A stretch of DNA of 6,553 nt from a virus. Its lineage: Duplodnaviria; Heunggongvirae; Uroviricota; Caudoviricetes. Positions 3,758 through 6,418 of this stretch are shown here, piece after piece; the stretch's first letter is position 1, and each line of letters opens with the position of its first letter. The notes beneath the pieces were generated by a model, which was given only the letters and a program-made list of their open reading frames with translations, made no database searches and was not told the origin of the DNA. The translations under genes were made by a program, and so were the position numbers. Location: positions 1 through 6,553 of IMG/VR virus record IMGVR_UViG_2654587568_000008. The stretch is one strand, 5' to 3'.

Positions 3758-4120
3758 TTAATGACCTGCTGCGCGGAGTTTTCCGTCAGGTTCACCGGCA
3801 AGAGTCAGTAATTGTCCCTGGTCTTCCTGCAGAATAGTCAGGCGACCACCGCGATTGACATACATCGGCGTTTCGGTGGTGTCTTCTTCGGAAATTTTCC
3901 CGCGGTTAGTCGGGCGAACATATGAGAGTTTGTGTTTTATTTTCACACGGTTCTCATCAAACGGTTCGATTTCCAGGTTGAGCGAGACCTTACCTTTGGT
4001 TTTCGTGTTCATCACACCGGAAGCGACTTCACTGAGAACTGCGCCGATTTTGGTTTCAAATACGCCGCCGTCCAGCTCCCCGATAAATGCCTGCACATCA
4101 GTACTGCGTTCGCTAGCCAT
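3758..4120 (-). CDS. yfdP: Prophage protein YfdP-like, 120 aa (true start ATG 4118-4120; the track's 197-aa ORF starting at 4351 is an over-extension)
   Basis: Internal ATG at 4118-4120 (MASERSTDVQ...) is preceded by GAGGAG with 7-nt spacer. The upstream 77 codons translate to a Cys/Arg/His/Pro-rich, non-protein-like sequence and overlap strong RNA hairpins. The 120-aa length matches K-12 YfdP from memory. Confidence 0.7.
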   Translation of the reverse strand: MASERSTDVQAFIGELDGGVFETKIGAVLSEVASGVMNTKTKGKVSLNLEIEPFDENRVKIKHKLSYVRPTNRGKISEEDTTETPMYVNRGGRLTILQEDQGQLLTLAGEPDGKLRAAGH

Positions 4121-4168
4121 TTTGCTGCTCCTCATCATATCGACCCTGCAAGGTCGGTTGGTTTCTCC

Positions 4169-4257
4169 ACAAAACAGAGAAGAACACCTGCGGTGGCAGC
4201 CGCCCGGATGGATTGGGTTATGAGCCCGTCGTCCGGTGATGCTCTTCTCTGTTTTGT
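4169..4257 (-). repeat. 15-bp perfect inverted repeat ACAAAACAGAGAAGA (4169-4183) / TCTTCTCTGTTTTGT (4243-4257) enclosing a 59-nt GC-rich, internally structured loop; long stem-loop in the yfdP 5' leader
   Basis: Arms are exact reverse complements. The loop contains further short hairpins (GCGG/CCGC 4190-4203, GGGTT/GAGCCC 4215-4227). It sits between the DicF-like terminator and the yfdP ribosome-binding site. Confidence 0.6.
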
Positions 4258-4325
4258 AAAAAGAGCGGTACCAGCCGGAAGCAAGTGTACAAACTGGTAC
4301 CGCCAAAGCAGTGGCTGTTGTGGTG
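4258..4325 (-). ncRNA. Candidate DicF-like prophage sRNA with its intrinsic terminator (stem GCGGTACCAG / CTGGTACCGC at 4265-4303, then TCTTTTT)
   Basis: Minus-strand sequence ...CUGCUUUGGCGGUACCAGUUUGUACACUUGCUUCCGGCUGGUACCGCUCUUUUU resembles the E. coli DicF core as I recall it (UUUGGCGGUAUCAGUUUUAC...GCCGCCCUUUUU). A 10-bp GC-rich stem followed by a U tract is directly visible. Location in the early-left leader of a lambdoid immunity region parallels dicF in Qin. Not confirmed by covariance search. Confidence 0.4.
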
Positions 4326-4714
4326 GGGTTGTCACTCAGGCGTATGGTCAACCTGACAATCCGGTGTCCTCAACGGGGAAAGAGTAACCCCGCCATACTT
4401 ACCGCCGCGCCATTTCGCGGATTACCACAACGCTGAGAGCACTTAGCCAGTTACGGCACCACACTTTGTCGCGGCTCCATAAATGCCCTCATCGTTGCAC
4501 CCTGGTCTCTTCCCAGGCGTCAAACCGAATCGCCACGCTGGTTAGGCGTCTTATCAGCATCATCATTGACTTGCACATTCCGGCTACCTGGTTTGTTTGC
4601 CCGAGCAAGGAGTGGATTGTCCCCTTTAACGTCCCCAGACCGCTAACGACGCATGTGCCATACGCCGTGTTACAACCAAATTTTGTTAGTACCTTGTTTG
4701 TAGGTCTGGAAAGA

Positions 4715-4767
4715 AAGATAAAATGAAGTTGCGCATTATGCAAGTGTTTTTATTGCGAGATATGCAA
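4715..4767 (-). promoter_or_regulatory. Candidate OL/PL: two 15-bp operator sites TTGCGCATTATGCAA (4729-4743) and TTGCGAGATATGCAA (4753-4767), centres 24 bp apart, overlapping a candidate leftward promoter
   Basis: Both sites share TTGC-N7-GCAA with the OR site at 5537-5551. Minus-strand -35-like TTGCAT (4738-4743) and -10-like TATCTT (4715-4720) with 17-bp spacing are weak. An alternative -10 CATAAT (4735-4740) has poor -35 spacing. Confidence 0.45.
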
Positions 4768-4777
4768 TTTGATGGGT

Positions 4778-4802
4778 AATGAAAAGCCACCTTCTGGTGG
4801 CT
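4778..4802 (-). terminator. Intrinsic terminator downstream of cI (stem AGCCACC/GGTGGCT, loop TTCT, followed by TTTCATT on the minus strand)
   Basis: 7-bp stem (4785-4791 / 4796-4802) with 4-nt loop and a U-rich tail, located 22 bp past the cI stop codon. Confidence 0.55.
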
Positions 4803-4823
4803 AATTGATGTTGAGGTAGGGGG

Positions 4824-5516
4824 TTAATTGTGTCGCTTAAGGGTTTGTGACTGACTGATTAAGACCTTTCCAAAGACCATAAACCGGTGTTCGTTTTCGC
4901 TGGTAATTCCCCATTCGCGGTAAATCTGATTATCAGAAATTACCAGCAGTTTATCAGGTATCATTTGCAGTCGTTTGACGTAAATTTTATCATCAAAACC
5001 AAATACATATATACCATCCCCATCAAACTGATTGATACTGATATCAACGAAGATGAGATCTCCTGGCTCAATGGTTGGACACATACTGTCCCCACGAACG
5101 TTGATAACTTTAATGTGATTTGCTGGTCGTCCACCAAACATCGATACAGCATTATCAGTTCTGTATTCAATGGCATGAATCACATCAATGACATCACCGC
5201 CCTGGATAAGGCCATTTCCCGCACTGGCACTGACATCCAGCATTTCAATACGGAATACATCCTTCACCTGCGCAACATCCTCACTAATACTGTTTTTACA
5301 TACAGTATTACTTTTGAGGTCTGAGGTAAAGAGATCAGCAATATCAACACCTAAGCTCCTGGCAATATTACTCAGGGCTTGTTCAGTGAATTGTTTCTGC
5401 TTACCTGTTTCGAGGCGCGAGATATTCGCCGCATCCACTCCTATTGCTTCAGCGAGATCGGCGATTTTCATGTTCTTCGCCTGGCGAAGTTGTCTGACTC
5501 GATTTCCTATGTTCAT
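4824..5516 (-). CDS. cI: CI-type prophage repressor: N-terminal XRE-family helix-turn-helix plus C-terminal LexA-like S24 peptidase domain, 230 aa
   Basis: N-terminus ...MKIADLAEAIGVDAANISRLETGK is a helix-turn-helix. C-terminus carries the GDSM serine motif (VRGDSMCPTIEPGD) and a downstream lysine (IYVKRL) as in LexA/lambda CI, with a candidate Ala-Gly cleavage site (SASAGNG). Divergent from the Cro-like gene. Confidence 0.9.
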   Translation of the reverse strand: MNIGNRVRQLRQAKNMKIADLAEAIGVDAANISRLETGKQKQFTEQALSNIARSLGVDIADLFTSDLKSNTVCKNSISEDVAQVKDVFRIEMLDVSASAGNGLIQGGDVIDVIHAIEYRTDNAVSMFGGRPANHIKVINVRGDSMCPTIEPGDLIFVDISINQFDGDGIYVFGFDDKIYVKRLQMIPDKLLVISDNQIYREWGITSENEHRFMVFGKVLISQSQTLKRHN

Positions 5517-5613
5517 GCGTTTATTACATTTCTTTATTGCGCGTTAAGCAAATCAACTTGCGCAAAATATTTGCGTGAAATAATATGCTCATCACGCAAT
5601 ATGTGGAGGTTAT
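5517..5613. promoter_or_regulatory. OR/PR/PRM divergent control region with repeated TTGCG half-sites
   Basis: TTGCG occurs at 5537, 5558 and 5571, CGCAA at 5561 and 5595. 15-bp site TTGCGCGTTAAGCAA (5537-5551). Palindromes TTGCGCAA (5558-5565), CGCAAA-ATA-TTTGCG (5561-5575) and TTGCGTGA...TCACGCAA (5571-5578 / 5592-5599). Candidate PR: -35 TTGCGC (5558-5563), 17-bp spacer, -10 TAATAT (5581-5586). Candidate PRM (minus strand): -35 TTGCTT (5546-5551), 17-bp spacer, -10 TGTAAT (5523-5528). GGAGG at 5605-5609 precedes the cro ATG. Confidence 0.6.
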
Positions 5614-5874
5614 ATGCAATCACCATTACGGAATGTGCGTAAGGCGCACGGATTTACTTTGCAGCATGTTGCTGCGGGCGTTCAGGTCAATCCAGCGACG
5701 CTGAGTCGTATTGAAAGACTGGAACAAATTCCATCTATCGATCTTGCAGAACGTCTGGCCAATTTTTTTAAGGGTGAAATCAGCGAAATGCAGATTCTTT
5801 ATCCGGCACGTTTTCAATCTAGCCAAAACCAGAATGGGTTTAAACCACAGGAACAGGAGGTAAGCCGTGGGTAA
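5614..5874 (+). CDS. cro: Cro-like helix-turn-helix regulator (XRE family), 86 aa
   Basis: ATG at 5614 with GGAGG 4 nt upstream. Helix-turn-helix ...FTLQHVAAGVQVNPATLSRIERLEQIPS. Divergent from cI across the operator region. Stop TAA at 5872-5874. Confidence 0.85.
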   Translation: MQSPLRNVRKAHGFTLQHVAAGVQVNPATLSRIERLEQIPSIDLAERLANFFKGEISEMQILYPARFQSSQNQNGFKPQEQEVSRG

Positions 5875-6418
5875 GCATCACTGGAAAGTGGAAAAACAAC
5901 CTGAGTGGCACGTGAAAGCTGTCAGAAAAACTATCGCGGCATTGCCTGGGGGTTACGCTGAAGCTGCTGACTGGCTGGATGTAACAGAGAACGCTTTATT
6001 CAACCGCCTTCGTGCAGATGGCGATCAGATTTTCCCGCTGGGATGGGCAATGGTTTTACAGCGCGCGGCTGGCACTCACTACATTGCGGATGCTGTCGCA
6101 CAGTCTGCTGGTGGGGTGTTCGTATCGCTTCCTGAAATTGAGGAAGTAGAGAACGCCGATATAAACCAGCGCCTGCTGGAAGTCATCGAACAGATCGGGA
6201 ATTACTCAAAGCAGATTCGTTCGGCAATCGAAGATGGGGTCGTGGAGCCACACGAGCAGACAGCAATTAATGATGAGTTGTATCTGTCAATTTCGAAGCT
6301 CCAGGAACATGCAGCACTGGTCTACAAAATCTTCTGCGCTCCAGAAAAGAGTGACGCCCGCGAGTGTGCAGCTCCGGGCGTCGTGGCGTTTTGTGTCTGT
6401 GGAGAAACTAACGCATGA
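5867..6418 (+). CDS. CII-like / YdaT-type prophage regulatory protein (putative), 183 aa, GTG start, translationally coupled to cro
   Basis: GTG at 5867-5869 is preceded by AGGAGG (5855-5860) and overlaps the cro stop (GTGGGTAA). Possible helix-turn-helix ...GYAEAADWLDVTENALFNRL. Position immediately after cro is typical of CII/YdaT-like regulators. Family assignment is by position and memory only. Confidence 0.7.
   Translation: MGKHHWKVEKQPEWHVKAVRKTIAALPGGYAEAADWLDVTENALFNRLRADGDQIFPLGWAMVLQRAAGTHYIADAVAQSAGGVFVSLPEIEEVENADINQRLLEVIEQIGNYSKQIRSAIEDGVVEPHEQTAINDELYLSISKLQEHAALVYKIFCAPEKSDARECAAPGVVAFCVCGETNA

Follow-up and report, generated by a model that had tools for sequence, protein, structure and literature searches.

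The cI repressor of phage lambda has been known since 1976 to be translated from a leaderless mRNA. On the lambda record its maintenance promoter, PRM, reads TAGATA-17-TAGATT-6-ATG, and the operators OR3, OR2 and OR1 are centred at -19, -42 and -66, respectively. Other prophage repressors have been mapped to leaderless or nearly leaderless mRNAs: the leader is 0 nt for racR of Rac (which reads GAATAT-6-ATG) and 3 nt for dicA of Qin, paaR2 of CP-933P is leaderless by both 5' RACE and N-terminal sequencing, and the cI transcript of PY54 was similarly mapped as leaderless. These four proteins belong to repressor families other than the one studied here and act at other operators; RacR and PaaR2, moreover, lack an S24 domain and have -10 hexamers that are canonical at -11. 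In the e14 element of E. coli K-12, dRNA-seq gave the ymfK mRNA a leader of 0 nt (Romero 2014, Table S3; PMC4681348). This gene is preceded by TTGTAC-17-TTTAAT-6-ATG, with a palindromic operator (TTGTACC...GGTACAA) that starts at the TTG of the -35 and lies between the -35 and the -10, and its neighbours are the cro-like ymfT and ymfL. In a restriction-modification context, transcription of the C.AhdI gene (ahdIC) begins at the first nucleotide of the initiation codon, downstream of a -10 hexamer TGTAAT; the C protein binds two adjacent sites centred at -29 and -44, and without it ahdIC transcription falls more than 10-fold (PMC2275141). Leaderless translation in E. coli is stated to need an AUG (Brock 2008, as cited in PMC8630535). 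A Klebsiella table of transcription starts (PMC3415461) includes no phage repressor among its leaderless genes.

Here, we examine a 6.5-kb window (the whole stretch of 6,553 nucleotides that was analysed), which corresponds to the early-left and immunity region of a lambdoid prophage whose immunity is of the mEp460/SfII/Stx2a_1447 type. In megablast searches with positions 4780-5900, matches of 99-100% were obtained to the Escherichia phages PhiR47_1, phiSTEC1575-Stx2k and mEp460, of 96% to Stx2a_1447/WGPS2 and of 92% to Shigella phage SfII; in all of these the matching region is annotated as cI, cro and cII. Of 5426 complete E. coli genomes, 1040 carry a 321-bp core of the immunity region, and the cI of Sp1, the prophage at the thrW site of O157:H7 Sakai, differs from that of the window. 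Since this immunity type is so frequent, and is carried by several Stx2-converting phages and by the Shigella serotype-converting phage SfII, the production of its repressor bears on both prophage stability and the induction of toxin phages.

We put at about three in four the probability that a weak promoter, TTGCTT-17-TGTAAT, starts cI transcription at A5516 in the lysogen and gives a monocistronic leaderless mRNA that is translated from its 5'-terminal AUG. Such a mechanism is already well known, and a leaderless cI resembling that of lambda had been proposed in a preliminary description of this sequence. The leaderless reading is strongly supported by inference rather than proven, and the actual 5' end, the manner of translation and the activating and repressing roles of CI are all deduced; no mapped 5' end for mEp460, SfII or Stx2a_1447-type phages was found in the literature searched, common as this immunity type is. 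(A mention of mEp460 in PMC10448788 concerns another phage, mEp460_evo81, and its dicA/rem genes.) In the lysogen, a weak promoter analogous to lambda PRM would serve for maintenance transcription of cI, with RNA polymerase starting at the A of the cI ATG or no more than 1 nt away from it. The transcript, of roughly 0.73 kb, would be monocistronic and would end at the hairpin that follows the gene. As it would have neither a 5' UTR nor a Shine-Dalgarno sequence, the ribosome would bind directly to the 5'-terminal AUG. The features on which this reading depends are listed in Table 1.

Table 1. Features of the immunity region (window coordinates; operator sequences are those of the cI strand where so marked)
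Feature	Position	Strand	Remarks
cI repressor	4824..5516	-	230 aa; Pfam HTH_3 residues 7-62, Peptidase_S24 residues 104-218
cI start codon ATG	5514..5516	-	transcription predicted to start at A5516 (+1), preceded by C (-1)
PRM-like -35 hexamer TTGCTT	5546..5551	-	3/6 to TTGACA; also the left half-site of predicted OR3
17-bp spacer, -35 to -10	5545-5529	-	read from sequence
PRM-like -10 hexamer TGTAAT	5523..5528	-	5/6 to TATAAT; G at position 2 (-11)
Discriminator aaacgc	5517..5522	-	6 nt; sequence unconserved among relatives
Intrinsic terminator-like hairpin after cI	4785..4802	-	a terminator is annotated at this position in the SfII record
cro	5614-5874	+	GGAGG Shine-Dalgarno
cro Shine-Dalgarno GGAGG and ATG (5614)	5604..5616	+	duplex energy -10.0 kcal/mol; internal contrast to cI
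cII	5867-6418		CP76/YmfL type; downstream of cro
Predicted operator OR3	5537..5551		TTGCTTAACGCGCAA (cI strand); 15-bp palindrome; pattern search
Candidate operator OR2	5551..5565		TTGCGCAAGTTGATT (cI strand); one half-site perfect
Predicted operator OR1	5585..5599		TTGCGTGATGAGCAT (cI strand); overlaps PR -10 and start region
Predicted OL operators	4729-4743; 4753-4767		TTGCGCATTATGCAA; TTGCGAGATATGCAA; centres 24 bp apart
Probable PR	5558..5586	+	TTGCGC (5558-5563), 17 bp, TAATAT (5581-5586)

Several traits of the locus are those of lambda. The cI and cro genes diverge, with predicted operators between them and matching OL operators, as a lambda-type switch requires, and the CI protein joins an N-terminal HTH domain (HTH_3, E-value 1.1e-10) to a C-terminal S24 self-cleavage domain (Peptidase_S24, E-value 5.9e-19). 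The cII gene, however, is not of the lambda CII type; it belongs to the family of ymfL, the neighbour of ymfK in e14, although YmfK itself is only 23% identical to the window's CI.

On the cI strand the sequence reads ...gttgat TTGCTT aacgcgcaataaagaaa TGTAAT aaacgc ATG aac ata... The coordinates and spacings of the preliminary description are all correct: the A of the ATG is the seventh base past TGTAAT, TTGCTT stands at a 17-bp spacing and overlaps the 15-bp palindromic operator at 5537-5551, and the string quoted as lying upstream of the ATG, gaaatgtaataaacgc, is found exactly at 5532-5517. Equally sound was the comparison with lambda PRM, in which the distances from -35 to -10 and from -10 to ATG are identical to those found here. 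As to the promoter hexamers, their positions stand but they are weaker than had been described, the -35 agreeing with the consensus at just three positions and the -10, which in lambda is TAGATT, having G in place of A(-11). The latter is normally the most conserved, near-invariant base of a -10 hexamer; at the start itself, C at -1 and A at +1 form the preferred dinucleotide. These two weaknesses explain why a generic sigma-70 consensus scan of the window did not call TTGCTT-17-TGTAAT, calling instead TCCACA-16-TATTAT (5607-5580). When the 97-nt intergenic region was subjected to 20,000 dinucleotide shuffles, 1.8% of the products had a match of at least 5/6 to TATAAT at exactly -12 to -7, and 0.2% had this together with TTGnnn at 16-18 bp.

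Two other registers for the -10 were considered and rejected. TAATAA at -10 to -5, and the extended -10 TG-T-AATAAA, would each lose T(-7) and have transcription begin within the ATG or past it, and both conflict with the positions that are conserved among relatives (T-12, A-9, A-8 and T-7). A start codon immediately followed by a stop (ATG-TAA, 5524-5529 of the minus strand) overlaps the hexamer, and an NTG-TAA is present there in every relative that has TGTAAT; it could be relevant only on read-through (PRE-type) transcripts, or it may be no more than a consequence of the hexamer.

The conservation of this arrangement was examined among relatives of the repressor. An IMG/VR search with the CI protein retrieved 80 loci, all at least 99% identical; near-identical copies being unusable for this purpose, they were replaced by diverged homologues, taken from tblastn matches in phage records and from a profile scan of GTDB contigs with one genome per species. 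Removal of duplicates left 33 non-redundant upstream regions, from relatives with 45-100% protein identity in about 20 genera (Escherichia, Shigella, Citrobacter, Salmonella, Klebsiella, Kluyvera, Pantoea, Erwinia, Proteus, Serratia, Yersinia and others). In all 33, the order TTGnnn, 16-18 bp, hexamer, 6 or 7 nt and ATG is kept, counts which overstate independence since the sequences are phylogenetically related. The spacer is 17 bp in 30 of them (16 or 18 bp in the other three), and the hexamer is separated from the ATG by 6 nt in 25 and by 7 nt in 8. The commonest hexamer is TGTAAT (20), followed by TTGAAT (4), TTTAAT (2) and TCAAAT (2), with TTAAAT, TCTAAT, TTAACT, TGTAAC and GTGAAT seen once each. 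T..AAT ends at -7 in 24 of the 33 regions and at -8 in 6; elsewhere upstream it occurs 0-1 times per position, except for a cluster of up to 5 per position at -82 to -86, which lies in or near the start of cro. By their high information content, T-12, A-9, A-8 and T-7 stand out as an island in the alignment, whereas the discriminator and the 3' half of the spacer are constrained in length and unconserved in sequence; the pair at -1/+1 is pyrimidine-A in 26 of the 33. The 1-nt differences in length between hexamer and ATG indicate that this stretch is non-coding. Such a partition into constrained and drifting positions is what would be predicted of a promoter that starts at the ATG.

The second position of the hexamer is never A among these 33 relatives; it is G in 21, T in 9 and C in 3. 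A single G-to-A change in TGTAAT would create a perfect TATAAT, and ymfK (TTTAAT) and ahdIC (TGTAAT) are likewise devoid of A at this position. The systematic absence of A(-11) looks like the result of selection to keep the promoter intrinsically weak. The 0-nt leader of ymfK implies that, in E. coli, a hexamer that lacks A(-11) directs initiation to the seventh base downstream.

The absence of a Shine-Dalgarno sequence before cI, which the preliminary description had asserted, is borne out by the calculated duplexes with the 3' end of 16S rRNA. The best of these in the 20 nt upstream of the ATG has an energy of -0.9 kcal/mol, as against -10.0 and -11.6 kcal/mol for the cro and cII of this window. 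Folding predictions leave the first 9 nt of the putative cI mRNA (5' AUGAACAUA) unpaired. An Rfam search of the whole window at E<=1 matched no RNA family. The start codon is ATG, as E. coli leaderless initiation requires, and it is ATG in all 33 relatives that carry the hexamer. A different intergenic region with an SD-like motif is found in six other relatives (L102, L104, L108, L109, L110 and L124; 41-59% identity): the anti-SD energy is -5.7 to -9.5 kcal/mol in four of the six and only -2.9 in L102 and L104, the hexamer is absent from all of them and about half start with GTG. This restriction of GTG to the SD group fits the AUG requirement of leaderless translation, and the presence of both types within a single family of repressors indicates that it has switched between leaderless and SD-led expression. 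In the more distant ST160-type c2 clade (42-45% identity) the arrangement, TTGACC-17-TAAATT-7-ATG, would be compatible with a leaderless start.

A first alternative, which we consider unlikely, is that the maintenance mRNA of cI has a leader, made from an upstream promoter and translated independently of a Shine-Dalgarno sequence. The promoter could be the TCCACA-16-TATTAT site, with a start near 5573, or else a cII-dependent, PRE-like promoter inside cro/cII; translation would then be S1-dependent, by way of an A/U-rich, unstructured leader, aataaagaaatgtaataaacgc. To its credit, it is this site and not TTGCTT-17-TGTAAT that the generic scan calls, the leader would indeed be A/U-rich, and in lambda a cI mRNA with a leader is made from PRE. 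Furthermore, in another data set the only start reported for ymfK was 277 nt upstream of the gene (11 reads; Kim 2012), so leadered transcripts of such genes exist too; the disagreement between the two ymfK maps is consistent with the presence of both PRM-like and PRE-like promoters, as in lambda. The TATTAT, however, is not conserved, being replaced by TGTTAT in SfII and in the relatives from Salmonella and Klebsiella; it mirrors the -10 of PR and its -35 complements the cro Shine-Dalgarno, functions that suffice to explain the presence and conservation of these sequences; and in the lysogen the promoter would lie under OR1 and OR2. We have rejected it as the maintenance promoter on these grounds. 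A leadered mRNA would also leave unexplained the T..AAT motif, the 17-bp spacer and the length constraint on a 6-7-nt discriminator. A leadered, PRE-like cI transcript probably exists in addition, as in lambda; its coexistence with a leaderless PRM transcript would entail no contradiction.

A second alternative takes T..AAT at -12 to -7 as a signal other than a promoter, either a site for protein binding or a non-SD translational element in a 5' UTR. The motif does occupy exactly the location of a Shine-Dalgarno sequence, so that its fixed position cannot by itself distinguish a promoter from an element of translation, and the exclusion of A from its second position (0/33) is odd for a sigma-70 -10. 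Nonetheless, it has no complementarity to the 3' end of 16S rRNA and is unlike the TTGCG/CGCAA half-sites of the operators; it retains four bases of the -10 consensus, T(-12), A(-9), A(-8) and T(-7), at a fixed distance of 17 bp from TTG; and the same types of hexamer precede the mapped leaderless starts of e14 and AhdI. We judge this explanation to be very unlikely.

The least credible alternative, that translation begins at the internal ATG of Met16 (5471-5469) and the 5516 ATG is irrelevant, can appeal to a weak AGG upstream and to the 215-aa CDS that the annotators of Stx2a_1447 (AP012536) called from this codon, but it would remove helix 1 of an HTH_3 domain that begins at residue 7, would disregard residues M1, I3, G4, R8 and R11, invariant among homologues down to 51% identity (the MxxG start persists to 45%), and would depend on an anti-SD duplex of merely -2.9 kcal/mol in a stretch sequestered by a hairpin at 5475-5489; we have therefore rejected it. 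The use of a different start codon had been named at the outset as an observation that would overturn the leaderless reading, and on this point the ATG at 5516 is upheld: an in-frame TAA (5546-5544) closes the frame upstream, this ATG is the first possible start after it, and it is the sole start that keeps the HTH domain intact. The hairpin just mentioned, of 6 bp (CUUCGC CAG GCGAAG on the minus strand), lies inside cI and covers the only SD-like bases of Met16.

The start of the repressor gene is inconsistently annotated in public records. In Stx2a_1447 (AP012536, 344-991) it is placed at Met16; in Klebsiella phage 1 LV-2017 (KY271401, 1136-1396) just an 86-aa C-terminal piece is annotated; and in phage Turner (PP925837, 339-1094) the annotated start is 75 nt upstream of the onset of homology. 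Gene callers based on Shine-Dalgarno sequences appear to mis-handle these predicted leaderless genes, and a leaderless cI would fix the correct start codon.

A pattern search for TTGCG-N5-CGCAA yielded the predicted OR3, OR1 and OL operators, all of 15 bp. The OR3 blocks TTTGC and ACGCAA are conserved in the alignment of relatives, and an invariant block, TTGCGCAA, pointed to a third and weaker site, the candidate OR2. In the clade of the window this site has only one good half-site, and hence the geometry of activation rests on a putative operator assignment; in the Cronobacter/Pantoea clade it is a better palindrome, ATGCGCAAGGCGCTT. The centres of OR1, OR2 and OR3 are at -76, -42 and -28 from the cI ATG, OR3 falling between the -35 and -10 of the PRM-like promoter. 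OR1 is 34 bp from OR2, and the last two overlap by 1 bp with centres 14 bp apart, compared with 23 bp in lambda; the OR region of the window thus has unevenly spaced operators and departs from a regular centre spacing of roughly 23-24 bp for three operators. The position of OR2 is nevertheless the same as in lambda. On the other strand, PR would probably give a cro mRNA whose leader is about 20 nt long, and its spacing is the same in SfII and in the Salmonella relatives, there with TAACAT.

With this layout, repressor bound at the -42 operator would assist RNA polymerase at PRM while repressing PR, as in lambda, whereas binding at -28, between the -35 and the -10 as in ymfK, would shut PRM off; the -42 site thus fits activation and the -28 site autorepression. 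The absence of A(-11) in 33 of 33 relatives and the abutting of OR2 and OR3 are what is mildly unusual about this locus. Judged from its geometry, the uneven OR layout resembles the C-boxes of restriction-modification systems more than it does the OR of lambda: the candidate sites at -28 and -42 correspond very closely to those of C.AhdI at -29 and -44, and the -10 hexamer is the same. There are also clear differences, for C.AhdI is a small protein without S24, not a 230-aa repressor with that domain, the -35 spacing of ahdIC is 18 bp, its box sequence is unrelated to the operators of the window, and the neighbours of cI are cro and cII instead of restriction and methylase genes. It is a tentative and rather doubtful suggestion that the exclusion of A(-11) and the abutting operators together define a distinct, obligately activator-dependent, leaderless autoregulatory promoter module of the C-protein kind. 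If so, this module would be the maintenance promoter of a widespread family of enterobacterial prophage repressors, and would use a mutually exclusive or tetrameric occupancy of two sites in place of the OR1-OR2 cooperativity of lambda.

The leaderless genes of enterobacteria form a short list, nearly all of them repressors of mobile elements, to which a leaderless cI would add a large and comparatively well-documented family. The coexistence of leaderless and SD-led lineages in one family of repressors amounts to a natural experiment on the reasons for the preference of repressors for leaderless mRNAs.

Some minor observations concern the rest of the window. The approximately 380 bp between OL/PL and the next leftward gene (4352-4728) contain no ORF that matches Pfam or PHROG; this is where a nutL site or an N-like antiterminator might be expected. 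In the adjoining ORF (3758-4351) the match to PHROG 204 begins only at residue 72, so that its true start is probably an internal Met near 4140. At the other end, a CHAT-domain ORF (32-928, + strand) matches only positions 432-729 of the 729-residue profile phrog_34827, and hence is either cut by the edge of the window or a truncated gene. It adjoins an excisionase gene (phrog_1553; 1036-1230, - strand), a proximity which suggests that it is a cargo gene at the end of the prophage.
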